Positions 43,883 through 59,606 of a DNA stretch of 64,000 bases are shown piece after piece. Positions within the stretch are counted from its first letter, which is position 1. Every line of letters starts with the position of its first letter. The notes under the pieces were generated by a model, which made no database searches, was not told the origin of the DNA, and worked only from the letters and a program-made list of their open reading frames with translations. A program made the translations under genes and the position numbers. This stretch comes from Vulcanimicrobiaceae bacterium (GTDB taxonomy: Bacteria > Methylomirabilota > Methylomirabilia > Methylomirabilales > 2-02-FULL-66-22), in the NCBI GenBank assembly GCA_035505475.1, contig DATJQT010000246.1:1632-65631 (forward strand). Direction: 5' to 3'.

Positions 43883-44018
43883 GGGCGGTCCTTTCGGCGG
43901 GCGGTTTCGGCCGCGACGTGCGTCGAACAGCCCGGTCAGCGTATACCGCCGTCCTGCGTGCAGAAGGACTGGCGGCGACTCGCGTTAAGCGAACAGACAA
44001 GCGAGCCGAACTGGACAA

Positions 44019-44056
44019 TAAAAAAAGGGCACCTCGCACACAGCGGCAAGGTGCCC
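44019..44056 (-). terminator. strong intrinsic terminator immediately after speH
   Basis: - strand: GGGCACCU (44056-44049), a 14-nt loop, AGGUGCCC (44034-44027), then U7 (44026-44020). Confidence 0.8.
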
Positions 44057-44071
44057 TCGCTGTAGACAGCC

Positions 44072-44512
44072 TTAGTGGACCAGGGACAATTCTTGAGTGG
44101 CATCGGCGACGGCCTCGCCGAGCTTGGCACTCGTCACCTTGTGCGGCAGCTTGCCGACAACGCCGGGAATCAGGCCGCGCTTCATCTCCACCACCGAGGG
44201 CCCCTTGCACCGGAACCGGCTGGCGATGTAGTCCACCGCCCGCTCCGGCTTGATCACGTCCCCGCAGGTAAAGATGTCAACCGCAGCGTACCGGTACTCT
44301 GGCCAGGTGTGAATCGACAGGTGAGATTCCGCGATCACCACGACCCCGCTCACGCCGAAGGGATTGAACTCGTGAAAAGCCACGTCCACAATTGTCGCCC
44401 CGCAGGCGCGGGCGGCACCCACCAAAATATCCTTGACCACATCCACTTTCTTCAACGAATCTGGGTGACAACCGTGGAGTTCGACGAGCAGGTGTCTACC
44501 CAAAGCGTGCAA
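44072..44512 (-). CDS. speH: S-adenosylmethionine decarboxylase proenzyme (small bacterial type)
   Basis: LGRHLLVELHGC, and GVSGVVVIAESHLSIHTWPEYRYAAVDIFTCG, which carries the ES self-cleavage site. TTG start with GGGGG upstream. Confidence 0.88.
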   Translation of the reverse strand: MHALGRHLLVELHGCHPDSLKKVDVVKDILVGAARACGATIVDVAFHEFNPFGVSGVVVIAESHLSIHTWPEYRYAAVDIFTCGDVIKPERAVDYIASRFRCKGPSVVEMKRGLIPGVVGKLPHKVTSAKLGEAVADATQELSLVH

Positions 44513-44583
44513 CTCTCTACCCCCTTTCGCCCGGCCACCGCCCCAGCGCGTCGCCCGCGGCCCGGTGAAATTTTTGTTTGTTG

Positions 44584-44611
44584 CTTATAGTGCATTTCCC
44601 CTCGAATGCAA
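44584..44611 (-). promoter_or_regulatory. sigma70-type promoter upstream of speH
   Basis: Gene strand reads TTGCAT (44611-44606), a 16-nt spacer, then TATAAG (44589-44584). It lies directly downstream of the 44612-44658 terminator. Confidence 0.55.
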
Positions 44612-44658
44612 GAAAAAAATGGGCCGCTGCCCCAATTTTTTCGGGGGCGTCGGCCCAT
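44612..44658 (-). terminator. strong intrinsic terminator about 270 nt downstream of the VOC gene
   Basis: - strand: AUGGGCCG-AC-GCCCC ... GGGGC-AG-CGGCCCAU (8+5 bp stem), followed by U7CU. Confidence 0.8.
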
Positions 44659-44933
44659 CCGTTGTCTCACCCGGGTCCGTGACAATTCGAGGGCCCACCT
44701 CCGCGTGTTTCCCCCTGGCACCAACGAGGCGTAGTATAAGGGAGAAAACGCGCACTGCATATGCCGATTCGCAAAAATCCGCCTGCTTTGAACACTAATT
44801 ATGCTTGCTTTCCGACCGACCGGGCTCGCCTCTCTCTGGGGAACTCGGAGCGCATTGGGAGCGAGCAAGGATGTACGAGGCGTATTGGGGACTCGTGAAA
44901 GCGCCCTTCCAGAATGCTCGAAATGAAAGTCGC

Positions 44934-45728
44934 TCAGGCGCTGAAGACCACTGCTACTCCATTCGCCTGGGAACCGATCAACTCATTCACTGTTTCGATC
45001 GGTACAGAATGCTTCTCAAAATGTTTTGTCGCTGCATTCATATTTTTCGCTTTCAGCCACACGCCTAAGAACCCTTCCGTCTTTCCCCCCAGCACACGCC
45101 CTGCCACCTGATTCTCAGCGAGCCCCGCCGAATCCAACACGGTCACACGGCTCTTTCCGATACTGACAACTTGTGAGTTTCCGAAGGGGCCGTCCTGCTT
45201 TGCAGCGGTCCCTTCGAAGTTCTTTGCGAGTATGGCGGCGAGGCCCTCCGCATCCTTTGCGCCAATGAGTACAGTCTCGACAGCTTCGAAGATCGCATCG
45301 TTCGCGATAGACAGCGTATGAGTTCCGTGCGCGGGCTGCGCCAGTTCGATCAAGAGGCCCTGATTAGCGCCTGGGTGAAGAAATCCAATCGTGCCGGCCA
45401 ACCCGGGATGCGGAGCCTGATCAATCAGTGGAAGATTGGCGGCTTTGGCTTGGCCCAAGGCGGTAGCCACATCGTTCGTTTCAATGCACAAGTGGTGTAT
45501 GCCCTCGCCCTTTTTCTCCAAGAAGCGGGCGACGCCTCCGGCAGGATGGGTTGGCTCCAATAACTCAATCTCGTCGGGGCCGACGGTCAGCAATGCGGCA
45601 CGTACACCTTGATCGGGAACTGTAGCTTCGCGGCTGACCGGGAGACCCATCGCTAACGAAAAGGTTTTCAACGACTCAGAAAGATTGCGGACGGCGATCG
45701 CAACGTGATGGATACCTCGATAAAGCAT
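44934..45728 (-). CDS. VOC (glyoxalase/methylmalonyl-CoA epimerase-like) family protein with a tandem domain
   Basis: GIHHVAIAVRNL...EIELLEP...GEGIHHLCIETNDV (epimerase-like N-terminal VOC module) plus a divergent second half. G+C looks lower than in the neighbours. Confidence 0.7.
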   Translation of the reverse strand: MLYRGIHHVAIAVRNLSESLKTFSLAMGLPVSREATVPDQGVRAALLTVGPDEIELLEPTHPAGGVARFLEKKGEGIHHLCIETNDVATALGQAKAANLPLIDQAPHPGLAGTIGFLHPGANQGLLIELAQPAHGTHTLSIANDAIFEAVETVLIGAKDAEGLAAILAKNFEGTAAKQDGPFGNSQVVSIGKSRVTVLDSAGLAENQVAGRVLGGKTEGFLGVWLKAKNMNAATKHFEKHSVPIETVNELIGSQANGVAVVFSA

Positions 45729-45767
45729 AACGGACCCTCTTCTTCCTTGCGGGCGCGATTTGCTTAG

Positions 45768-46160
45768 CTACTTTATAATGACGTCGACCGTTCGCTCACG
45801 CGGCCCATCAAACTCAACCAACATGATGCTTTGCCATGTTCCCAGCTTGAGACGGCTCGCGTGAATCGGGATCGCCTCGCTCGGCCCGAGGATCGAGGCT
45901 TTGATGTGCGCAGACGCATTATTGTCAATGCGATCGTGCAACCAGGTGCCGTCGGGAATGAGGCGTGCGAGTGCATCCAGGATGTCTTTGCAAACGTTCG
46001 GATCGGCATTCTCGTTGATGACGAGCGCGGCGGTAGCGTGCGGAACGTACACAAGGCAGATCCCTTCTGCCACCCCGGATTGCTTGACGAACTGCTGTAC
46101 GCGCTCCGTGATGTCAATCATCTCCCGGGTTCTTTCAGTCCGAATGTGAATCTCAGGCAT
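45768..46160 (-). CDS. yjbQ: YjbQ/UPF0047 family protein (secondary thiamine-phosphate synthase-like)
   Basis: MIDITERV..., CLVYVPHATAALVINENADPNV, NASAHIKASILG, LGTWQSIMLVEFDGPRER. Start taken at MPEIHIRT (46160). Confidence 0.85.
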   Translation of the reverse strand: MPEIHIRTERTREMIDITERVQQFVKQSGVAEGICLVYVPHATAALVINENADPNVCKDILDALARLIPDGTWLHDRIDNNASAHIKASILGPSEAIPIHASRLKLGTWQSIMLVEFDGPRERTVDVIIK

Positions 46161-46262
46161 AGAGACGGCCCCCGGTGCAGGTGGTATGCTGTGGGAACGT
46201 TGACCGAATATAGCTAGGCAGGGCAAGCCTGTCATCAACAACCAAGGCTGGAGGGGAAATTG

Positions 46263-46460
46263 ATGGATCCGGCGACGCGCGATGCGATTGCAGAAGCGGT
46301 GCAGGCGATCGATGATGCGATCTCAGGTCTCGTTGGCTTCGCGATGACGCTTCGCCCCACTCTGCGCAATGAGATCTTTCAGATCTGCGGCCCACATCTC
46401 GACCGGGCACGCCAAGCCAGAGAACGACTCAACGCTCTCGTTAACCCTAGCCCTTCCTAA
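46263..46460 (+). CDS. small hypothetical protein (65 aa)
   Basis: ATG preceded by GGAGGGG at a good distance. The frame is GC3-biased and reads as a helical-looking sequence (DAIAEAVQAIDDAISGLVG...). No recognisable motif. Confidence 0.35.
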   Translation: MDPATRDAIAEAVQAIDDAISGLVGFAMTLRPTLRNEIFQICGPHLDRARQARERLNALVNPSPS

Positions 46461-46501
46461 TTTGGCGGAAACTGAACCACATTTGCTCGGCTTTCCTGCA
46501 C

Positions 46502-47656
46502 TCACTGCGCGTTCCGCTGGGGGTGATGTACATCACAGGCCCGCACCGCTTGCGCGATCTCTTCGAGAACCACCGGGTCTTCTTCTTTGGCTTGCACCTC
46601 GCGAAGCACCGAGGTCGCCCCCTCACCAGCAATTCGACCCAAAGCCCATGCGGCATGAGCGCGGACCAAAGCATCACGATCGTGCCGAAGTGTGTTGGCC
46701 AGCGCAGGAACGGCCTCGAGTTGCCCGCTGTTTCCAAGGGCCACACAAACATTCCGAAGAAAGCCACGCCGTTTCGCCCGCAGGGCCGGGCTCTCGCGGA
46801 ACAGCACCTTGAAATCGTGCTCGGTGAGCGATAGGAACGGGATCAACTCCGGGGCCTGCAAGTCCGGACGCGGCGAAAACGCCGCCTCTGTCGATGCAAG
46901 AGGTTTGATGTTATAGGGACACACGTCCTGGCAAATGTCGCACCCAAAGAGATGGGACCCCATGGGCTCGCGCAGATCGGTAGGGATCGGTCCTTTCAAT
47001 TCGATCGTGAGATACGAAATGCACTTTCGGGCATCGAGGATATACGGGCCGACAAACGCGTCCGTCGGACAGGCATCCAGACACAGCCGGCAATCGCCAC
47101 ATCGGTTCGGAAGTGGGCTATCCGCTTCCAGTACAATGTCGAGGAATAGCTCACCGAGCACGAAATAGGATCCCACCCCCGGCCTGATCAGATTTGTGTT
47201 CTTCCCATACCACGCCAGTCCAGCTGCCGACGCAATCTCCCGGTCAAGAATCGGGCCGGCATCCACGAACGCCCGCGCCTGAACGTCCCGCCCGGCTTCC
47301 TCGCACACAGCCGCCCACAACTGGTCAAGACGCTTTCCAAGCACCTCGTGATAGTCTTTGTTCTGTGCATACCGCGCAATGCGTCCGCGTAGCCCTGTGC
47401 CTGAGTTCTGGTGTTGCTCTGCGCTCCAATAGCAGAGGCCGACGGCGATGATCGACTTGGCCCAGGACAGAAAACGCTCGGGATGGAGCCGCTGCTCAGC
47501 CGTCCTCGGCAAGTAGGCCATGTCGCCGTGATACCCCTGATTCAGCCACGTCTGAAACGCGTTTCCGCGCACGGGTGGGCTCACGGCTGCGACGCCGACC
47601 AAATCGAACCCGATGGCAAATGCTCTGCTCTTAACCCGCTCAGCCAACAATTCCAT
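46502..47656 (-). CDS. queG: tRNA epoxyqueuosine(34) reductase
   Basis: GYHGDMAYL, CGDCRLCLDACPTDAF, CISYLTIE, LFGCDICQDVCPYN, and a C-terminal HEAT-like region. Start taken at MELLAERV (47656). Confidence 0.88.
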   Translation of the reverse strand: MELLAERVKSRAFAIGFDLVGVAAVSPPVRGNAFQTWLNQGYHGDMAYLPRTAEQRLHPERFLSWAKSIIAVGLCYWSAEQHQNSGTGLRGRIARYAQNKDYHEVLGKRLDQLWAAVCEEAGRDVQARAFVDAGPILDREIASAAGLAWYGKNTNLIRPGVGSYFVLGELFLDIVLEADSPLPNRCGDCRLCLDACPTDAFVGPYILDARKCISYLTIELKGPIPTDLREPMGSHLFGCDICQDVCPYNIKPLASTEAAFSPRPDLQAPELIPFLSLTEHDFKVLFRESPALRAKRRGFLRNVCVALGNSGQLEAVPALANTLRHDRDALVRAHAAWALGRIAGEGATSVLREVQAKEEDPVVLEEIAQAVRACDVHHPQRNAQ

Positions 47657-47827
47657 GCGGCACATACCCCATCCAGTTTCCAGTATGGCAGGAGAATAAT
47701 GCAAAGCAAAGCCACTCTCTGCGCCGCGTCAATTTATCTTGACACCACTTCCCCACCTGGGCCAAGCTCCCGTTGTGTTTGCGGCACATTCTGAATGGTG
47801 AATCTCTTTCGCCAAGGAGGCCGGCAC

Positions 47828-49393
47828 ATGGGTCGGAATCTGAAACGCATCGGCGTGATCGCGGTACTGGTCGCCGCCCTCGTACTCGTATGGGGCATCG
47901 GCGATGCAGCCCAAACTGCAAAGAAAACATTGGTGGTTGCGCTGAACCAAGATCCCGACATCCTCGACCCCAGCCTCTCGCGGACGTATGTTGGCCGGAT
48001 CGTGTACGAACACATGTGCGAAAAGCTCTATGAGATTGATGAGAATCTGAAGATCTATCCCCAGCTCGCGGCAGAGATGCCCACCTTTGCCGATGGCGGA
48101 AAGACCGTTACGATCAAGCTCCGCCGGACCGTGAAATTCAACGACGGGACACCGATGACCGCGGAAGCGGTGCGCTACTCGTTGGATCGTCATCTCAACA
48201 TGAAGGGCTCGGCCCGACGGAGCGAACTCGAGTTGGTCACCGCCATCGAGGTCGTTGATCCTCAAACCATTCGTTTGCGGCTGAAGGCGCCCTTCTCGCC
48301 TATCGTCGCCACGTTGGCGGACCGGGCGGGGATGCCCGTCTCGCCGGCCCAGGCCAAGAAACTTGACGACAAATTCGGCACGGCCCCGATCTGTGTCGGT
48401 CCCTGGACCATGGTCGAGCGCGTGCCACAGGACCGGATCGTGCTGGAAAAATCCAAGTACTATTATGATCCCTCCCAGGCCAAGTTCGACCGGATCGTCT
48501 TCCGCATCATCCCCGATGACAATGTGCGTCTCGCCAACCTCCGCTCTGGCGACATTGACCTGATGCATCTCGTCGCGCCGACGGACGCCGCCAGTCTACG
48601 GAAAGAGAATCGATTCGAGGTGTCCAGCGTCACCGGACTCGCGTATCAGAGCATCACGATCAACCTCCACAACAAGAACGGCAAGAACACCCCGCCCGCT
48701 GACCTGGGAACCCCGCTGGCCAACGACCCGCGCGTCCGCGAGGCGTTCGACCTCAGCATCGATCGCGAGGCTTTGAACCAGGTCGCCTGGGATGGCCAGT
48801 ACACGCCCGGGTGCACCCCGATCTCGCCGGTGAGCCCGTTCTACGACAAGGGCCGCAAATGCCCGACCCGCGACGTGGCGAAAGCCAAGAAGCTCTTGGC
48901 CGACGCCGGCCTGGCGAGTGGATATAGCTTCGAGATGACGATCGTGAACGACCCGCAGCAGCGGCGCGTGGGCGAGATCATCCAGGGGATGGCAAAAGAA
49001 GCTGGACTCGATATCACCCTCAAGCCGTCGGAATTTGCCTCGGCGCTCAAGGACGATGATGCGGGCAGCCTGCGCGCATTCCTCATCGGTTGGAGCGGTC
49101 GCGTGGATCCGGATGGAAACATTCACCAGTTCCACACCTGCGGCGGCAGCCTGAACACGACCGGCGCATGCGACAAGGCAATTGACGACCTCCTGAACCA
49201 AGCCCGCGAGGTGAGCGATCAGGCGCAGCGGGCCGCCTTGTACAAACAGGCCATCGACAAACTGGTGCTCGAGCGCCGGAATCTTCTGTACCTGTACCAC
49301 CAAAACTACATTGTCGCGTTTCCGAAGAACCTGCGGGGCTACAAGGCCGTGCCGGACGGCCTGATTCGCTTGAAGGGGGTTTCCTGGAACTGA
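47828..49393 (+). CDS. ABC transporter substrate-binding protein, family 5 (peptide/nickel/opine type)
   Basis: ATG preceded by AAGGAGG. Signal peptide MGRNLKRIGVIAVLVAALVLV, then a family-5 body (LDPS..., KFNDGTPMTAEAV.YS). Confidence 0.85.
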   Translation: MGRNLKRIGVIAVLVAALVLVWGIGDAAQTAKKTLVVALNQDPDILDPSLSRTYVGRIVYEHMCEKLYEIDENLKIYPQLAAEMPTFADGGKTVTIKLRRTVKFNDGTPMTAEAVRYSLDRHLNMKGSARRSELELVTAIEVVDPQTIRLRLKAPFSPIVATLADRAGMPVSPAQAKKLDDKFGTAPICVGPWTMVERVPQDRIVLEKSKYYYDPSQAKFDRIVFRIIPDDNVRLANLRSGDIDLMHLVAPTDAASLRKENRFEVSSVTGLAYQSITINLHNKNGKNTPPADLGTPLANDPRVREAFDLSIDREALNQVAWDGQYTPGCTPISPVSPFYDKGRKCPTRDVAKAKKLLADAGLASGYSFEMTIVNDPQQRRVGEIIQGMAKEAGLDITLKPSEFASALKDDDAGSLRAFLIGWSGRVDPDGNIHQFHTCGGSLNTTGACDKAIDDLLNQAREVSDQAQRAALYKQAIDKLVLERRNLLYLYHQNYIVAFPKNLRGYKAVPDGLIRLKGVSWN

Positions 49394-51469: not shown

Positions 51470-53269
51470 CTACCAGCCCACGGCGTAGCCGATCGCGCGC
51501 CGGGGCGACACCGCCCCCGCGATCACGCCCCGCTCTTCATCGGTTCGAATCCCCATGACCTTCCCATTGGCCCATTCCCCGATCAGCTTTACCTCGTGGC
51601 CGCGACGCTCCAAGCCCTTGATAGTCTCCTGCGGGAAACGCGCTTCCATTTCCACCCGGTTCGGGTATGCCGGCCGCGGATAAAACGAGGACGGAAAGTG
51701 CACCGATGTCAGCGTGGGGGCATCGAGCGCTTCCTGGAGATTCATTCCGAACACGACATGGTTGAGGAAGAACTGCAGTGTCCACTGTTCCTGCCCATCG
51801 CCGCCGGGCGTTCCGAACACCATCAGCGGCCGGCCATTCTTTGTCACCAGGCTGGGCGTGAGCGTGGCGCGCGGGCGCTTGCGGGGAGCCAGAGCATTCG
51901 GCCGGGCCGCGTTCAGATAGAACATCTGCCCCCGCGATCCGAGCGGGAATCCGAGCCCGGGAATGACCGGCGAATCGGCGAGCCACCCCCCGCTCGGCGT
52001 CGCCGCGACCATGTTTCCGTGTCGGTCCACGGCGTCCAGGTGGGTCGTGTCCCCGACGTGCGAATGGCCGAGGCCCAGGTCGCGAACCTCGCCTCCCTTC
52101 ACCTGCAGCGCCCGCCGGTTGTCGGCCAAGACGTCGAAAGTGGCATAGGCGGGCACGCCGCGCCCCACATCCCCCGGGCGGAAATCGGGCGAGGCCGTCT
52201 CGCCGATCGCCGCGCGCCGCTTCTCGGTGTATGCTGCCGAGAGCAGGATGTCCAATGGCACCGCGTCGAACTGTGGATCGCCGTAATACGCCTCGCGATC
52301 GGCAAAGGCTAGCTTCGCGGCTTCGATCAGAATGTGCAAGTACTCGGTCGACTGCGCCCCCAACGCGTGCAGGTCGGGACGATCAATAAGCGCAAGTTGC
52401 TGCAGGAAGACCGGCCCTTGCGTCCACGGCGGGCATTTGTGCACCTCCATCTCTCGGAACCGCAGGCTGACCGGCTCTTCCACGCTTGCATGCCATTCGG
52501 CGAAATCTTCAGCGCTGAGCAGGCCCGAGTGGGCCGTGCCGCTCGCGTCCTCGACCGAATGCTTGGTGATGAACGCCAGAATGCGCTCGGCAATCTCGCC
52601 TCTGTAGAACGCATCCCGCGCGGCCTCGATCCCCGCCGCGCGACCCTTGTGCTGCGCCTCGGACTCTGCCTGGCACAACAGTCGAAGGGACTTCGCCCAA
52701 TCCGGATTGCGAAACACGTCGCCAATCTGCGGAACCCGTCCTCCGGGTAGGTACAACTCGCCGGTCGATGGATACAGATTCAGGTATTTCGTCCGATTGG
52801 CCGTGAGGTGCTCGTGCAGCCCGTCGTACACGGCGAATCCGTTCTCGGCCAACTCGATCGCCGGCTGAAGCACATCGCTCATGCGCAGTGTGCCGAAGCG
52901 AGCGAGAGCCGTCGCCCAGGTATCCACGACCGCGGGGACGCAGGCCGGCAGCAACCCATCGCCGGGGATCAGATCAATCTTGTGCTCACGGCACCAGTCG
53001 ATGGTAAAGGCCTTGGCGGACCATCCCATGCCCGAAACCGCATACGCCTTCTTGTCCTTGGCGGAATAGATCAGGGTGGGCACCTCGCCCCCGATGCCGT
53101 TGCTCTGCGGCTCGAGCAGATTGAGGCAGAACACCATGCTGGCTGCGGCGTCAATCGCATTGCCGCCACGCTCGAGGATTCGGAATCCCGCCGTGCTCGC
53201 CAAATAGTGCCCGGACGTGACCACGGCAGACCGCCCCATGATCACGGGCCGTGTGGTAAAAGACGCCAT
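51470..53269 (-). CDS. ggt: gamma-glutamyltransferase family protein (no obvious signal peptide)
   Basis: VTSGHYLASTAGFRILERGGNAIDAA, HVGDTTHLDAVD (autoprocessing Thr), GTPGGDGQ. Start taken at MASFTTRP (53269) with AAGGAG upstream. Confidence 0.85.
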   Translation of the reverse strand: MASFTTRPVIMGRSAVVTSGHYLASTAGFRILERGGNAIDAAASMVFCLNLLEPQSNGIGGEVPTLIYSAKDKKAYAVSGMGWSAKAFTIDWCREHKIDLIPGDGLLPACVPAVVDTWATALARFGTLRMSDVLQPAIELAENGFAVYDGLHEHLTANRTKYLNLYPSTGELYLPGGRVPQIGDVFRNPDWAKSLRLLCQAESEAQHKGRAAGIEAARDAFYRGEIAERILAFITKHSVEDASGTAHSGLLSAEDFAEWHASVEEPVSLRFREMEVHKCPPWTQGPVFLQQLALIDRPDLHALGAQSTEYLHILIEAAKLAFADREAYYGDPQFDAVPLDILLSAAYTEKRRAAIGETASPDFRPGDVGRGVPAYATFDVLADNRRALQVKGGEVRDLGLGHSHVGDTTHLDAVDRHGNMVAATPSGGWLADSPVIPGLGFPLGSRGQMFYLNAARPNALAPRKRPRATLTPSLVTKNGRPLMVFGTPGGDGQEQWTLQFFLNHVVFGMNLQEALDAPTLTSVHFPSSFYPRPAYPNRVEMEARFPQETIKGLERRGHEVKLIGEWANGKVMGIRTDEERGVIAGAVSPRRAIGYAVGW

Positions 53270-53317
53270 CGGTTTCTCCTTCCCTGGTGACGAAGGCAAC
53301 GCCGCACTCGGCCGCGG

Positions 53318-53372: not shown

Positions 53373-55097
53373 TCACCTACCTCGCTTCCGCTCGAGCCAG
53401 CTCTTGAGATCCCTGAGGGGTCTAGTATTGAGGACATCGGGCGCCCCGACCCAGGCGCGCCGGGCTACCGCCACGCCATACCGCATGTAGGGCAACTCCG
53501 TGGCCACGTGGGCGTCGGTACTGATGGTGAGCGGAATCCCGAGGTCTTTCGCCCGCCGGGCAGAAACATCGGGAAGATCCAGGCGCGCCGGCGAGGCGTT
53601 GATCTCCATCGCGGCGCCCGATTCCCGCGCTGCCTGGAAGACTGTTTCCAGGTCTACATCGTACGGCGCCCGCTGTCCGATCACCCGGCCGGTGGGATGC
53701 CCCAGGATATGCACCAACGGATGCCGGACACCGCGGACAATCCGAGCAGTCATTTCATCCCGGCTCATCTTGAACCCGGAATGAATCGACACCTGCACAA
53801 GATCCAGCTGGCGCAGCAGCTCATCCTCGTAATCCAGGCTGCCGTCGGCCCGGATGTCCACCTCACATCCGACAAAGATATGAAAATCGGTCAGGCGCTG
53901 CTGCAACTGGCGCACCTCGGCAACCATGGCCATGAACTTGACCGGACCCATCCCGCCGGCAATTGCGGTGGATTGCGAATGATCGGTCACAGCCATGTAC
54001 CGGTATCCCTGAGCCCGAACAGCATCGGCCAAGTCCGCGACGCTCAACGCGCCGTCGCTCCAGGTGCTGTGCAGCTGCAGATCGCCCTGGATATTCTCCG
54101 TCGCGATGAGCTGAGGCAGACACCCTGCTGCGGCGGCCTCGATCTCCCCCGCGTCCTCCCGCAATTCGGGCGGAATCCAGGGCAGGCCGACGGCGCCATA
54201 GACTTCTTCCTCCGTGGCCCCGCCCAGGCGCGTGCCGTCTTCCTGAAATACGCCATACTCGTTGATCTTGAGATTGCGGCGCTGCGCGATCTCCCGTAGT
54301 CGGATGTTGTGTTGCTTGGCCCCAGTGAAATACTGGAGCGCCGCGCCGAAGCTCTCCGGCTGCACGACCCGGAGGTCTACCTGGAGGTTGCGGCGCAGAC
54401 GGACGCTCGATTTCGTCTCACCGCGGACCAGCACGTCTACGACCACGGGCAACCCGATGAATGCTTCCATGATGCGCGCCGGCTCGCGTGAGGTGACGAG
54501 GATATCCACATCCTTGACCGTCTCCTTCATGCGGCGGACGCTGCCGGCGAGGGCAATCTCATCCACGGGCGCACGGTCCCGAAGCTGCTGGACAATCGCC
54601 TCCGCGAGGCCAAGGGCCGTGCCGATCGGCGTACGCTCTCTTCCGCTCCGCCAGACGGCGATACCGCGCAAGATATTCTCTTCCGTCTTGGCTTGAATGC
54701 CCGGAATGCCCGCAAGTTTGTGGTCTCTGGCCAACTCCTCCAGCTTCTCCACCGAATCCACGCCCGCGCGCTCGTACAGCAGCTTGGCCGTTTTCGGCCC
54801 GACCCCGTGCACGCCGATCAATTCGATGACGCCGGCGGGAATTTCTCTGCGCAGGTCCTCCAGGTACTCGATCGAGCGCCGCGCAAGATACTCGGTAATC
54901 TTGGCTGCGAGATCCTTCCCGATGCCGGGGATCGCCAGCAATTCCCCGCGAGCCGCCACCGCCGTGAGATCTTCGGCCAAGCCCTCCAATGCCTGCGCCG
55001 CGCGTCGATACGCCCGAACCCGAAAGGCGTTCTCGCCTTTCAGCTCCAAGAAGTCGCCGATCTCGTTAAAGAGCATTGCGATTTCCGCGTTGACCAT
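53373..55097 (-). CDS. polX: DNA polymerase/3'-5' exonuclease PolX (family X polymerase plus PHP domain)
   Basis: NAEIAMLFNEIGDFLELKGENAFRVRAYRRAA, HhH motifs (IPGIGKDLAAKI, VHGVGPKTAKLL), LAGSVRR..ETVKDVDILV, PHP domain (LQLHSTWSDG, ISTDAH). Start is either ATG 55097 or GTG 55115. Confidence 0.88.
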   Translation of the reverse strand: MVNAEIAMLFNEIGDFLELKGENAFRVRAYRRAAQALEGLAEDLTAVAARGELLAIPGIGKDLAAKITEYLARRSIEYLEDLRREIPAGVIELIGVHGVGPKTAKLLYERAGVDSVEKLEELARDHKLAGIPGIQAKTEENILRGIAVWRSGRERTPIGTALGLAEAIVQQLRDRAPVDEIALAGSVRRMKETVKDVDILVTSREPARIMEAFIGLPVVVDVLVRGETKSSVRLRRNLQVDLRVVQPESFGAALQYFTGAKQHNIRLREIAQRRNLKINEYGVFQEDGTRLGGATEEEVYGAVGLPWIPPELREDAGEIEAAAAGCLPQLIATENIQGDLQLHSTWSDGALSVADLADAVRAQGYRYMAVTDHSQSTAIAGGMGPVKFMAMVAEVRQLQQRLTDFHIFVGCEVDIRADGSLDYEDELLRQLDLVQVSIHSGFKMSRDEMTARIVRGVRHPLVHILGHPTGRVIGQRAPYDVDLETVFQAARESGAAMEINASPARLDLPDVSARRAKDLGIPLTISTDAHVATELPYMRYGVAVARRAWVGAPDVLNTRPLRDLKSWLERKRGR

Positions 55098-55151
55098 GCG
55101 CCGCGACCCTTTCACACACTCATTCCAAGGACGCCAGTGCGGCAGGCAGTT

Positions 55152-56048
55152 CTACCCGTCGAGTCGAAGTCCCGCCTCGCGCGCAATCGCCACGGCCTCG
55201 GCGAATTCGGCGGCTGTCGGCCGTCTGGACAACTCTGAATATTCCGACGCCCGATAACACGGCCGATACTGCGCCATCGCGTTCATGTAGGTGTGCGGCG
55301 ACAGCTCGGCGAGAAAAGCGACGGCCTTGGGCGTGCCGGCCAATCCATGCGGCAGGACGAGGTGGCGGACTAAGAGACCCTGGCGGGCGACACCCCGTGA
55401 ATTCACCTCAAGATCGCCGACCTGTCGGTGCATCTCGCGAATCGCCAGATGAGCGGCGGCGAAATAGTTCTCGACGCCGGAATACCGGAATCCGGCTGCA
55501 TCGTCCGCAAACTTCAGATCCGGCATGTAGATATCCACGATACCGTCGAGAATGCGCAGCGCCTCGACCGATTCGTACCCTCCGCAGTTGTACACGATCG
55601 GCAGATGCAGGCCATGCTCCTGTGCCATGGCCAGTGCGTGCAGGATCTGGGGCATTTGATGCGTCGGGGTGACAACATTGATATTCTCGCAGCCGCGCTC
55701 CTGCAGATCGAGCATGATGGATGCCAGTTGCCGTGCGGAGACCCTGAGCCCGTCTCCGAGCTGGCTGATGTCGGCATTCTGGCAAAACACGCACGAAAGA
55801 TTGCATCGAGCGAAGAAGATCGTCCCCGATCCGCCGGCACCAACGAGCGGACGTTCCTCTCCAAAATGTGGGCCATAGCTCGCCACTTGAGCCTCGGCGC
55901 CCACGCCGCATGCACCCACCTCACCGTCGGTGCGCCGCGCACCACATCGCCTTGGGCACAGGCGGCACGCTGAGATCAGCTCGTCGGCGGCCGCAATCCG
56001 ATCGCGCAAATCTGTCGGGCTCATGCCCAAATAGCGGGGCCAATGCAT
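55152..56048 (-). CDS. radical SAM protein, PflX-like (COG1313-type)
   Basis: CRLCPRRCGARRTDGEVGACG, then FFARCNLSCVFCQNADIS (CxxxCxxC). 298 aa. The 194-aa track N-terminal extension overlaps mutM in another frame and was rejected. Confidence 0.8.
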   Translation of the reverse strand: MHWPRYLGMSPTDLRDRIAAADELISACRLCPRRCGARRTDGEVGACGVGAEAQVASYGPHFGEERPLVGAGGSGTIFFARCNLSCVFCQNADISQLGDGLRVSARQLASIMLDLQERGCENINVVTPTHQMPQILHALAMAQEHGLHLPIVYNCGGYESVEALRILDGIVDIYMPDLKFADDAAGFRYSGVENYFAAAHLAIREMHRQVGDLEVNSRGVARQGLLVRHLVLPHGLAGTPKAVAFLAELSPHTYMNAMAQYRPCYRASEYSELSRRPTAAEFAEAVAIAREAGLRLDG

Positions 56049-56097
56049 AGGTCTTCCCACTATAGGACCGTGATCACCGAGGGCCCTCCCATAAATG

Positions 56098-56916
56098 TCA
56101 ATGCTGGCAAACGGGACAGAAGTGGGTCCCGCGTTGACCGAGGACGATCCGACGAATCGGCGTGCTGCACACCGTGCAGGGCTTCCCATGGCGGTGGTAT
56201 ACACGATGCCGGATGACGAACAGCCCAGGCTCACCGTTCGGCCTGCGATAATCGGAAATCGTGCTGCCGCCATGACGGATACCGGCGGCGAGTATCGCCC
56301 TGATCGCCTCCCGGAGTCGTTTGAACTCATCGCGCCGCAAAGAAGAGGCCCGACGGGTTGGCCGGATTCCCGCCCGGAAGAGCGCCTCATCGGCATAGAT
56401 GTTTCCGACCCCCGCCACCTTGTGTTGATCCAAGAGCGCTGATTTGATTTTGACCTGCGAATGGCGAAGGCATTCCGCGAGTCCCTCCGCCGTAAATGCG
56501 CTCTCCAGCGGCTCGATTCCAAGGCGGAGCGTCGCTTCGACCGCGTCGGTCCGCAGCAAAAAGATCTCGCCGAACTTCCGGATGTCACGGTACGAAAGAA
56601 TGCCATCTCCGGCGAACTCGATCCACGCATGCGTGTGGGTATCGGGAATAAAGGCCGCTCGTGTCCACCAGCGCAATTGGCCTGTCATACCGAGATGGAT
56701 GACGAGTGTCAGCTCGCCGAGTTCGAACAGAAGGAACTTGCCTCGCCGCCCGAGCTTCTGAATGTTTCGCCCAACCACACGTTCCGGGATCTGCTGCGGT
56801 TGCCCCTGCCGACGGTTCAAGCGCGGCGCACGGAGTGTGACACGCGCGATGTGCTGCCCCACAACATGAGGCTCGAGCGCGCGGCGAATAACTTCAACTT
56901 CCGGTAGTTCAGGCAT
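56098..56916 (-). CDS. mutM: formamidopyrimidine-DNA glycosylase
   Basis: MPELPEVE, LGMTG, GVGNIYADEALF, and the C-terminal zinc finger CTVCSTPI...GTHFCPVCQ. Confidence 0.93.
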   Translation of the reverse strand: MPELPEVEVIRRALEPHVVGQHIARVTLRAPRLNRRQGQPQQIPERVVGRNIQKLGRRGKFLLFELGELTLVIHLGMTGQLRWWTRAAFIPDTHTHAWIEFAGDGILSYRDIRKFGEIFLLRTDAVEATLRLGIEPLESAFTAEGLAECLRHSQVKIKSALLDQHKVAGVGNIYADEALFRAGIRPTRRASSLRRDEFKRLREAIRAILAAGIRHGGSTISDYRRPNGEPGLFVIRHRVYHRHGKPCTVCSTPIRRIVLGQRGTHFCPVCQH

Positions 56917-56985: not shown

Positions 56986-58419
56986 TCACCCCTCCGCCTC
57001 CGGCTCCGCGTGCACGGTCACCCGTTCAATATCGGAAAGCTCCCGTCGGGCACGGCGGCCCAGTTCCAGGCCAAGCTCGTGCGCTTCGCGAACGGTCAGA
57101 TGGGGATCCATGCCGCAATCGCAAAATATCCAGAGCCGGCCTCGGAGCCGCTTGGCGGTGACATTCCGGCAATTCCGGATTCCGGGAATCTGCGACACCA
57201 AGGCCGACAGCGTGCCGGCAAGCTGTTCGAGGTCCGCTCCCGTTTCCAAGCCATCGCGGCGAACCCCGCGGATCGGGTCAATGTGAATGTGGATCGCCCC
57301 GAGCGCCGGGAAATCGCGCCGCAGATCCGCCTCGATCCGCTCCGTGAGGGCATGCGCCTCGGTGAGAGGCGTCCCGCCGGGCAGTTCCAGGTGGAGATCG
57401 ACGTTTCGTTTCCCGCCCGTGTCATAGATCAGCGTATCGTGTGCTCCGGCCGCATAGCGGGACACGATCAGCCGAACCGCCGCGCCCATGCTCTCGTTAG
57501 CCGACCGGAACGGTTCCGCATGAATGACGGTGCTCGCATCCGGCGCGACCTCTCGGATACGCTGTTCAATCTCGCTCACCACATCGTGAGCGCTCTCCAG
57601 CGACGTTCCCCGCCCGAGCGACACGGCGGCATCAACGAAGAGGTTGGGGCCCGCCGTGCGGACGCGCAACCAGTTGGGCCCGCGGGCGTCTGGTACGCTG
57701 GCGATGGCGGCGCGGATGCGCTCGACGACTTCGAGCGGCGCGCGATCGAGCAGAACGTCAACGGCCCGCCGGCCCAGGCGCACGCCGACCACCAGCACGA
57801 TAAGAGCGACGAGAACCGCGGCCAGCGGGTCCGCCAGGTGCAGCCACGCAATGCCCCACGCCTGACCGACCGCCACGGCGGACAGCCCCACTAACACCGT
57901 GCAGGAGCTCCACACGTCGGTTCGGAAGTTGAGCGCGTCGGCCTCCAGGGCCTGGCTGCCGGTCGCGGTCGCGACCCGCGCCAGGGCGCGCGAGCGCGAA
58001 ATATCGACGGCAATGGACGCGATGATCACACCGAACGCGGCCCAGGTGGGCTCAATGGCAGTCGAACGGGAGAACAGTCGATCCACTGCTTCCCAGACGA
58101 TCCAGCCGCAGGTGATCACGAGCAGGCTGGTTTCGACCAGCGCGGAGAGACTTTCGATCTTTCCATGACCGTAATGATGCTCCCGATCGGCCGGACGATC
58201 GGACACGCGAACAGCCAGAAGGGTCAGAACGCTCGCGACCAGATCAAGGGTCGAATGTGCCGCCTCGGAGAGAATGGCCAAGCTCCCAGTTTGCCAGCCC
58301 ACCAACAATTTCCCGAAGACGAGCGCGCAGGCGGCAATGGCCGAGAGTCGGGCCACCCGGACCTTGTCGGTCGTAACATTGGCAGCCGCCGCTCCCGACG
58401 GCGGAACGACAACGGACAT
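56986..58419 (-). CDS. cation diffusion facilitator (CDF) transporter with three tandem cytoplasmic C-terminal domains
   Basis: TM domain with LSEAAHSTLDL and HHYGHGK. Three ZT_dimer-like repeats follow, each ending ...H(A/I)(E/D)P (aa ~225-303, 310-382, 395-473). Confidence 0.85.
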   Translation of the reverse strand: MSVVVPPSGAAAANVTTDKVRVARLSAIAACALVFGKLLVGWQTGSLAILSEAAHSTLDLVASVLTLLAVRVSDRPADREHHYGHGKIESLSALVETSLLVITCGWIVWEAVDRLFSRSTAIEPTWAAFGVIIASIAVDISRSRALARVATATGSQALEADALNFRTDVWSSCTVLVGLSAVAVGQAWGIAWLHLADPLAAVLVALIVLVVGVRLGRRAVDVLLDRAPLEVVERIRAAIASVPDARGPNWLRVRTAGPNLFVDAAVSLGRGTSLESAHDVVSEIEQRIREVAPDASTVIHAEPFRSANESMGAAVRLIVSRYAAGAHDTLIYDTGGKRNVDLHLELPGGTPLTEAHALTERIEADLRRDFPALGAIHIHIDPIRGVRRDGLETGADLEQLAGTLSALVSQIPGIRNCRNVTAKRLRGRLWIFCDCGMDPHLTVREAHELGLELGRRARRELSDIERVTVHAEPEAEG

Positions 58420-58433
58420 CCAACCTCCACGTG

Positions 58434-58961
58434 CTAGGTGGAATCGTTCCGAGAAGCGAAGAGCTCGGGGCGGGCGGTGCGCAACTGATCCAAAGCGTCT
58501 TCCCAGTCGCGGCTGGACGGAAATGCCAATGCAAAGGCGAGCACCGAAGCGGCCGCTAAGGCGTAAAAATCGAAGAGATACCCACCGACGAAGTACAACA
58601 CCAGCCCGAGGACGACGGGGGCTTCGGCCACCGCGAAGACGAGGATCTGGTTCGAGGATAAGAGCGACAAAATTTCCGGAAGATTGCGGCCGCGCGTCTG
58701 CCGAAGGAGCCTCTCGCGGTCGAACAGCTTCCGCCGCATGATGAAGACCGCAACACAGGCGATTGCGCCCAGCCCGTACAGGGGAAACCGCAGCCAGTCC
58801 ACCGCCGCAAAAACGTCGCGGCCCCGTGGGATGCGGGCCACCATCCGGATGACCTGCACCACCACCCAGTACACTAAAATGGAGCCCAGCATCGCCGCAT
58901 ACACGACGCGCAGAGGCGCGAGCACCATGCGAACGCGGCCGCGAATCGCATCGTCCGGCAT
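58434..58961 (-). CDS. hypothetical integral membrane protein (about four hydrophobic spans)
   Basis: 175-aa GC3-rich ORF abutting the HAD gene stop. No recognisable motif. Confidence 0.45.
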   Translation of the reverse strand: MPDDAIRGRVRMVLAPLRVVYAAMLGSILVYWVVVQVIRMVARIPRGRDVFAAVDWLRFPLYGLGAIACVAVFIMRRKLFDRERLLRQTRGRNLPEILSLLSSNQILVFAVAEAPVVLGLVLYFVGGYLFDFYALAAASVLAFALAFPSSRDWEDALDQLRTARPELFASRNDST

Positions 58962-59606
58962 TTACGATCTCCGAGAGAGCAGCGTCTCGAGTTCCACCTG
59001 CCCCAAATCTTCAACCACCAGGTCCGCGGCCGCGAGACGCCATGCCTGGCAGGAATGCGTCACGGCGACGCAGCGCATGCCGGCGGCTTTTGCGGCCCGA
59101 ATTCCGCCCGGCGTGTCCTCGATCACCACACAGCGGTTCGGGGAAAGCCCGAGGCCATCGGCAGCCCGTAAGAACGGCTCGGGATGCGGCTTGCCCTCGG
59201 TGCAGTCCTCGCGGGTCACGATCAGCTCAAAGCGATCGCGAATCTTATGCGTGCCGAGGGCGAGCTCGGCCTCATCCCGCATGGAGCCCGTGGCCAACGC
59301 CACCCGCCAACCGTCCGTGCGGGCGAGCAGGCCCAGGCCATCCGGAAACGCAGGAATCCCCGCCCGCACCAGCTCCAGATACCGGGCGCTCTTTGCGGCA
59401 CATGCCTCGGGTCGGGACCGTTCCCGGGGCAGGAGCATTTCCATCACTTCCCAATCGGAATAGGCAATGTAGCGGCTGAAATAATCGGCCTCGGACATTG
59501 CGATACCGCACGCCGCCAGGATTTCCTGCGTGGCGCGAAAATGCAGCGGCTCCGTGTTCACAAGCACGCCGTCCATATCAAAGATAATCCCGCGCTCCCC
59601 CGTCAC
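58962..59606 (-). CDS. HAD-superfamily hydrolase (beta-phosphoglucomutase/phosphatase-like)
   Basis: IIFDMDGVLVNTE (DxDxV), LATGS, VVIEDTPGGIRAAKAAGM. Confidence 0.8.
   Translation of the reverse strand: MTGERGIIFDMDGVLVNTEPLHFRATQEILAACGIAMSEADYFSRYIAYSDWEVMEMLLPRERSRPEACAAKSARYLELVRAGIPAFPDGLGLLARTDGWRVALATGSMRDEAELALGTHKIRDRFELIVTREDCTEGKPHPEPFLRAADGLGLSPNRCVVIEDTPGGIRAAKAAGMRCVAVTHSCQAWRLAAADLVVEDLGQVELETLLSRRS

Follow-up and report, generated by a model that had tools for sequence, protein, structure and literature searches.

A lineage-restricted fpg–radical SAM–polX gene order in NC10-like bacteria

The stretch of DNA considered here, 64,000 nucleotides (nt) of contig DATJQT010000246.1 from assembly GCA_035505475.1 (Vulcanimicrobiaceae bacterium; positions 1,632 to 65,631 of the forward strand) and referred to below as the window, carries on its minus strand a gene for a radical S-adenosylmethionine (SAM) protein lying between fpg (mutM), which encodes formamidopyrimidine-DNA glycosylase, and polX, which encodes a family X DNA polymerase. 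The order fpg–radical SAM–polX is, as far as we found, undescribed, and it is a lineage-restricted synteny of known kinds of gene. On balance we favor the view that it had a single origin, in an NC10/Methylomirabilota-like ancestor, and has been inherited within a mixed housekeeping block without constituting a base-excision-repair (BER) module. A preliminary description had proposed such a BER-linked role for the radical SAM enzyme from the adjacency of the genes; the arrangement is limited to one lineage and is therefore weak evidence for a new DNA-repair module, its block of about 15 genes includes unrelated ones, and in other phyla the neighbors of the radical SAM gene are heterogeneous. 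The main value of the analysis is in this respect negative, in that the three genes form a lineage-specific synteny unfit for guilt-by-association annotation. The three genes, the spacers between them and the cysteine motifs of the central protein are located in the window as follows.

56098..56916, minus strand: fpg/mutM, formamidopyrimidine-DNA glycosylase/apurinic-apyrimidinic lyase, 272 amino acids (aa)
56049..56097, minus strand: fpg–radical SAM spacer, 49 nt, with a GGGAAG Shine-Dalgarno-like element 6 nt ahead of the ATG
55152..56048, minus strand: radical SAM gene with a PflX-type label, 298 aa, start MHWPRYLG
55908..55967, minus strand: N-terminal Cys4 motif C28-x2-C31-x3-C35-x3-R39-x7-C47, a probable second metal/Fe-S site
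55782..55805, minus strand: CX3CX2C motif C82/C86/C89 (CNLSCVFC, then QN), codons read directly
55098..55151, minus strand: radical SAM–polX spacer, 54 nt, or 36 nt with a GTG start at 55115
53373..55097, minus strand: polX, family X DNA polymerase with a C-terminal PHP phosphoesterase domain, 574 aa from the ATG

Distribution of the gene order

The polX gene lies directly downstream of the radical SAM gene in every locus that has enough flank and encodes a radical SAM protein with 62% identity or more to that of the window (the window itself, L001-L002, L004-L009, L093 and L172-L174), and fpg lies upstream in most of these relatives. The contigs that encode proteins 63-67% identical, several of which are labeled candidate division NC10, keep a long syntenic block of about 15 genes, and beyond the trio this block mixes functions, with a two-component system and genes for HAD, cation-diffusion-facilitator (CDF), GNAT, gamma-glutamyltranspeptidase (GGT), DUF1028 and QueG proteins. 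The relatives are arranged as follows, with the positions of two recurrent insertions given last.

L173, L174: HAD, hypothetical protein, fpg, radical SAM, polX, GGT; radical SAM–polX gap of 1 nt
L004: CDF, GNAT, fpg, Clp1-type kinase, radical SAM, polX, hypothetical protein, GGT
L005, L007-L009: (further genes), fpg, Clp1-type kinase, radical SAM, polX, DUF72, DUF72, GGT, DUF1028, uvrC
L172: like L005, plus an opposite-strand Uma2 gene between kinase and radical SAM
L006: unrelated, divergently oriented genes upstream and fpg absent; radical SAM, polX, DUF72, DUF72, GGT kept
Clp1-type kinase (PF16575): L004 8849-9931; L005 6848-7930; L007-L009 6848-7930; L172 2318-3439
Tandem DUF72 pair, 3' of polX with uvrC a few genes on: L005 10855-12400; L006 10856-12278; L007 10730-12275; L172 7615-9210

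Across these relatives the gap between radical SAM and polX is between 1 nt (L173) and 218 nt (L172) long, and the fpg–radical SAM junction is broken in L004, L005, L007-L009 and L172 by the gene for a Clp1-type P-loop protein of 360-373 aa that is polynucleotide 5'-kinase-like (PF16575, 135 bits). DNA-end processing would be a fitting role for a kinase beside Fpg and PolX. The Clp1-type kinase is absent from the 64 kb of the window, where neither DUF72 nor uvrC lies between polX and the GGT gene.

The name under which the sequence is deposited is a separate matter. An identical 298-aa radical SAM protein (P0001) is present in NCBI, labeled as coming from a "Candidatus Baltobacteraceae bacterium" metagenome-assembled genome (MAG); the named close homologues are labeled candidate division NC10, and other close ones, at 63-67% identity, share the synteny of about 15 genes. 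The Baltobacteraceae label set against the NC10-like relatives suggests a mis-binned contig or a mislabeled MAG.

Outside this lineage, the neighborhood was surveyed in 160 loci drawn as two independent samples, 80 from GTDB species genomes (Thermodesulfovibrionales, Chloroflexota, Bacillota, Desulfobacterota, Planctomycetota, Bacteroidota, Aquificota, methanogens and others) and 80 from JGI metagenomes, with the flanks queried by tblastn with the Fpg and PolX of the window. Among loci below 62% identity, fpg was found in none of the 116 whose upstream flank reaches 1.5 kb or more, and an adjacent polX in none of the 119 with 2 kb or more of sequence downstream; the sole match below that identity is a PolX-like fragment in L078, 7.2 kb off and on the opposite strand. 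At 61% identity, the locus of P0112 reads TilS, PhoU-like, radical SAM and metallophosphoesterase. Recurrence of the mutM/polX linkage is therefore borne out beyond this one genome, in NC10-like relatives at 62% identity or above, and fails in phylogenetically independent lineages, since the linkage is confined to those relatives.

The three proteins

The gene identities given in the preliminary description, namely Fpg, a 298-aa radical SAM protein and PolX on one strand, agree with the equivalog and Pfam scores and with the minus-strand open reading frames (ORFs). The same holds for the two motifs that it had picked out in the radical SAM protein, an N-terminal CxxCxxxC...C and CNLSCVFC, which read as C28/C31/C35/C47 and C82NLSC86VFC89. 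In an alignment of 46 diverse homologues, C28, C31, C35, R39 and C47 are invariant, and the CX3CX2C cysteines, Q90, N91 and about 30 more positions are at least 90% conserved; in 13 closer homologues the CX3CX2C cysteines are invariant. Residues C82, C86 and C89 are the predicted ligands of the SAM-cleaving [4Fe-4S] cluster, whereas the invariant N-terminal Cys4 probably marks an auxiliary metal or Fe-S site, metal binding being ascribed to it from the sequence.

The AlphaFold2 model of the radical SAM protein (pLDDT 96.9) has as its best solved fold in Foldseek the pyruvate formate-lyase activating enzyme (PFL-AE; 3C8F, TM score 0.60 by query and 0.72 by target, 14% identity, E = 5e-11), after which the matches are generic radical SAM folds, and PFL-AE is also the one match, and a weak one (E = 7e-4), in a profile search of PDB sequences. 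The window protein shares with PFL-AE (3C8F/3CB8) and other activases the partial TIM-barrel radical SAM core and the CX3CX2C motif followed by (H/Q)N, but it differs from PFL-AE in about 50 extra N-terminal residues, which include the invariant Cys4, and in a longer C-terminal part, and it differs from the activases in its low identity (14%) and in scoring below the cut-off of every activase model. Its sole Pfam match is the generic model PF04055 (39.3 bits, gathering threshold 29.5), and no curated NCBIfam model was matched at its cut-off, the scores being 25.8 bits against a cut-off of 220 for the AmmeMemoRadiSam radical SAM family (TIGR04337), 25.8 against 425 for the hydroxyproline dehydratase activase (NF043069), 22.5 against 131.15 for NrdG2 (TIGR02495) and 21.2 against 174.35 for PFLE_PFLC (TIGR02494). 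The best of these, TIGR04337, aligns residues 27-123 with model positions 13-121, that is, the Cys-rich region through CX3CX2C; AMMECR1 and Memo genes were found neither in the clade loci nor among the 25 Pfam families that are most frequent on each side of the radical SAM gene, and to our knowledge the AmmeMemoRadiSam radical SAM family is likewise without a known function. With spore photoproduct lyase (SPL), to which an analogy had been drawn, the protein has in common only its membership in the radical SAM superfamily: there was no SPL match in NCBIfam or Pfam and no SPL structure in the top 50 Foldseek PDB matches. The analogy thus finds no support in sequence or fold, and an SPL-like repair enzyme was rejected as a candidate. 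Proteins of the COG1313/PflX type, such as AF_1961 of Archaeoglobus fulgidus, carry the same source labels, are of about 300 aa, share the architecture and occur in bacteria and archaea, and a putative assignment to them rests on labels and architecture. The radical SAM protein resembles PFL-AE-type enzymes in fold and cluster motif, and lies outside the activase, AmmeMemoRadiSam and SPL families.

When 1.84 billion cluster representatives were searched exhaustively, 5805 relatives were found, of which 1139 have E < 1e-30, the family clusters being counted at 50% identity. Homologues in many other phyla retain 47-61% identity to the window protein, an unusually high value that argues for a single conserved function not dependent on PolX, and the family is presumably iso-functional there. 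The family is noteworthy in itself: it is extremely conserved, spans bacteria and archaea including aerobes, and has an invariant second Cys4 site. Its members are labeled "radical SAM protein" or "putative pyruvate formate lyase activating enzyme" at source, and searchable literature on PflX, COG1313, AmmeMemoRadiSam and PolX/RtcB with radical SAM holds annotation-level mentions only and no experimental function for the family, in line with the earlier statement that PflX-type radical SAM proteins have no established function. Searches of phages and plasmids found the family also as stand-alone genes on the large replicons of Methylocystis and haloarchaea, which are aerobes. Eight unannotated "Bacteriophage sp." contigs from human feces (MT835472.1 and MT835546.1 among them), putatively phage, encode radical SAM homologues 39-47% identical.

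Five family members contain inteins or are fusions (P0169, P0172, P0201, P0244 and P0221). In three of them an intein interrupts the protein close to the cluster-binding motif, and two of these inteins have LAGLIDADG homing endonuclease domains; one member has an N-terminal HAD_2 phosphatase (P0244), and one is fused to DUF6171. As Rosetta-stone hints the fusion partners were set aside, as they amount to three inteins, one HAD_2 and one DUF6171 only, and the likeness of the fused HAD to the HAD of the window is generic (31%).

Judged from their sequences, Fpg and PolX are canonical full-length orthologues, belonging to their families by every feature tested. Fpg has the N-terminus MPELPEVEV and a C-terminal zinc finger (CTVC...CPVCQ), matches PF01149 (Fapy_DNA_glyco), PF06831 (H2TH) and PF06827 (zf-FPG_IleRS), and is above the NCBIfam equivalog cut-offs of NF002211 (306.1 against 212 bits) and TIGR00577 (298.2 against 203.3 bits), with residues 1-272 covered; against MutM of Thermus thermophilus (1EE8) it aligns from P2 to the C-terminal zinc finger at E = 4.8e-60. 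PolX matches HHH_8, HHH_5, DNA_pol_B_thumb and PHP in Pfam, is above the equivalog cut-off of NF006375 (PRK08609; 566.6 against 426 bits) and aligns with T. thermophilus PolX (3AU2) at E = 1.5e-167 over its full length, including the PHP domain, with the KDVDILV and GDLQLHS motifs aligned. The pair in T. thermophilus has the same domain sets (PELPEVE, H2TH and zinc finger in MutM; Pol-beta core and PHP with GDLQxHS in PolX), and the sole difference is that the two genes of the window flank a radical SAM gene, the proteins themselves being without notable difference. An altered PHP motif, with Q-x-H for H-x-H, had been considered as the mark of an unusual PolX and was rejected, since T. thermophilus PolX has the same GDLQVHS. 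PADLOC gave no defense-system match for the radical SAM protein, Fpg or PolX, and a viperin-like anti-phage defense module was rejected on that account.

Possible roles of the radical SAM enzyme

What the family adjoins elsewhere gives no general partner, either in unbiased clustering of all flanking ORFs or in Pfam scans of neighbors from other phyla (73 downstream, 75 upstream), in which the 73 downstream genes carry 147 families with none in more than 6 of them. The associations that do recur are each infrequent. A lambda-phosphatase/ApaH-like metallophosphoesterase occurs in 9/160 loci, mostly of Thermodesulfobacteriota; a metallophosphoesterase of about 215 aa lies directly downstream and co-directional in L022 (2891-3541), L024, L041, L052, L055, L063, L134, L155 and L167. 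A class-V aminotransferase with a 2-hydroxyacid dehydrogenase lies beside the radical SAM gene in 6-8/160 loci from several phyla, and an HD_3 (YfbR-like) hydrolase in 5/160, often about 1 kb upstream in Thermodesulfobacteriota-type loci. Contexts linked with RNA or nucleic acids are rare and were selected post hoc: in a Methanotrichaceae genome the genes for radical SAM, archease, RtcB and a SpoU-type methylase are co-directional with gaps of 23-80 nt (L038, 7980-11599), in L163 the radical SAM gene is followed after 49 nt by archease, and in a Rikenellaceae genome RtcB lies directly upstream of the radical SAM gene (L062, 6352-7503). RtcA, Mut7-C RNase, MnmE and an aminoacyl-tRNA synthetase were each found as a neighbor in single cases, and TruA twice. 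DUF72 was considered as a conserved partner, being near the gene in 4/80 genome loci (L016, L075, L076 and L078) as well as in the NC10 clade, and was dropped when the metagenome sample gave 0/80; YjbQ/UPF0047, in 4/80 and 1/80 loci at distances of 0.4-6.5 kb, was too weak to retain. No glycyl-radical enzyme was found in the clade loci, nor, in a frequency-ranked summary of the 148 immediate neighbors, among the top 25 Pfam families of each side.

If the order is an inherited accident of position, then fpg and polX would be ordinary BER genes acting independently, with Fpg removing 8-oxoguanine and formamidopyrimidine lesions and nicking the DNA by beta,delta-elimination, and PolX cleaning the 3' end through its PHP domain and then filling the gap. 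The radical SAM gene would be the lineage's single orthologue of a ubiquitous, strongly conserved family, encoding a PFL-activase-like partial TIM barrel whose CX3CX2C [4Fe-4S] site would reductively cleave SAM to a 5'-deoxyadenosyl radical, and its position between fpg and polX would have arisen once and been carried along in a long, co-directional, mixed block. Its substrate is most likely unrelated to BER and the same as in the many lineages in which the gene is solitary or has unrelated neighbors; we infer an absence of functional coupling between the enzyme and BER, next to gene identities, motifs, a fold class and a distribution that are directly observed. Several points weigh against this reading. 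The radical SAM–polX junction is the single one never broken in about eight arrangement variants, and the 1-nt gap in L173 and L174 suggests translational coupling. The block of the relatives is rich in repair and end-processing genes (fpg, the Clp1-type kinase-like P-loop gene, polX, two DUF72 genes and uvrC), so that guilt by association is not empty here. RNA end-joining and healing genes occasionally adjoin the family elsewhere (L038, L062), and no experimental function is on record for it, so that "unrelated to repair" is itself unproven. The first of these points favor a lineage-specific recruitment into a repair operon, with PolX as the main partner of the radical SAM enzyme and Fpg, the Clp1-like kinase and DUF72 as looser ones; there the enzyme might carry out radical processing of a lesion or blocked DNA end, or the post-translational modification or activation of PolX. 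The adjacency to polX persists even where the upstream genes are replaced (L006) or interrupted (L172) and tightens to 1 nt, repair-related genes gather in the relatives' block, and no terminator separates the genes of the window. Yet all of this amounts to one evolutionary event in one lineage, and with about eight junctions and about six insertion or deletion events we estimate the chance of an unbroken junction at about 45%. Moreover, the window protein is unexceptional, being 55-60% identical to copies without nearby fpg or polX in other phyla, there is no SPL-like signal in sequence or fold, and CDF, GGT and HAD genes belong to the same block. Recruitment therefore appears unlikely to us, and the specific version in which the enzyme was drawn into an NC10-like end-processing/BER operon (fpg, Clp1-type kinase, polX and two DUF72 genes), acting on damaged DNA, a blocked terminus or PolX, is very unlikely. 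A functional linkage would give a role to one of the largest radical SAM families still uncharacterized (more than 1100 clusters at 50% identity) and bring a radical enzyme into BER; were recruitment true, it would be a first functional handle on the whole family and, next to SPL, the second known case of radical SAM chemistry serving DNA repair.

Two further explanations concern the family as a whole. In one, it would act on RNA, DNA or a phosphorylated nucleotide-like substrate, for modification or end-healing, with the NC10 context as one of several. The RtcB and archease contexts (L038, L163 and L062) hint at an RNA-repair or tRNA link, the Clp1-type kinase adjoins the gene in the NC10 relatives, and unrelated phosphoesterases recur, as Metallophos, as the 5'-deoxynucleotidase-like HD_3, as the HAD_2 fusion of P0244 and as an adjacent HAD gene in L054; the RtcA, Mut7-C, TruA, MnmE and synthetase neighbors and the inteins in three family members point the same way. 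These families were, however, picked post hoc from hundreds, each association covers at most 6% of loci, several are restricted to one lineage (Metallophos and HD_3 mostly to Thermodesulfobacteriota), and DUF72 disappeared from the second sample, whereas the pair of class-V aminotransferase and 2-hydroxyacid dehydrogenase is as frequent and points to amino-acid metabolism, so that we regard a family-wide nucleic-acid role as decidedly unlikely. The label "putative pyruvate formate lyase activating enzyme" would instead make the protein an activase that installs a glycyl radical on an unlinked partner, in keeping with PFL-AE as its closest solved fold and only PDB sequence match and with its activase-like CxxxCxxC(Q/H)N motif. 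Against this stand scores far under the cut-offs of TIGR02494 (21/174), TIGR02495 (22.5/131) and NF043069 (25.8/425 bits), the lack of a glycyl-radical enzyme among the most frequent families of the 148 immediate neighbors or in the clustered flanks, the presence of the family in aerobes such as haloarchaea and Methylocystis, and the invariant N-terminal Cys4, which PFL-AE does not have; the chance that the label describes the true function is slim.

The gene row in the window

The trio belongs to a longer co-directional run on the minus strand, in the order sigma54 response regulator, HAD, 175-aa ORF, CDF, fpg, radical SAM, polX and GGT, with successive gaps from regulator to GGT of 63, 0, 14, 69, 49, 54 and about 100 nt. 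The genes around the trio are as follows.

58962-59606, minus strand: HAD_2 hydrolase, from the ORF list and the Pfam annotation of the identical contig L001; within the syntenic block
58434-58961, minus strand: 175-aa ORF between the HAD_2 and CDF genes; within the syntenic block
56986..58419, minus strand: CDF transporter, 69 nt upstream of fpg (PF01545, PF16916; TIGR01297, 264 bits)
51470..53272, minus strand: GGT, about 100 nt downstream of polX (PF01019, E = 9.8e-121)

Similarly short gaps occur across the whole run, and therefore spacing cannot single out a three-gene module. The gaps within the trio are those reported earlier, 49 nt and then 54 nt from the ATG of polX or 36 nt from the alternative GTG at 55115, which would give a protein of 580 aa, six residues longer. 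A site search of the window placed no terminator-like site in the 49-nt or the 54-nt spacer, and shuffled sequences fold at least as well as the RNAs that span the spacers (z = +1.8 for fpg–radical SAM and +1.2 for radical SAM–polX), which upholds the earlier remark that terminator hairpins are missing there. With their common strand, the 49- and 54-nt gaps and the lack of terminator-like structure, fpg, radical SAM and polX are probably co-transcribed.

The start of the radical SAM gene is at MHWPRYLG, because alignment with homologues fixes it there; a 492-aa ORF (55152-56630, minus strand) is the same gene extended upstream, where it overlaps fpg in another frame. The window is about 64% GC in this region and has many other long, overlapping ORFs on both strands that are not genes. 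Its GC content dips to 0.575-0.588 at 44001-48000, compared with 0.62-0.69 over the rest of the window; correspondence with L001 places in this low-GC segment a peptide-ABC substrate-binding gene, queG (about 46502-47665, minus strand) and yjbQ (about 45768-46160, minus strand).

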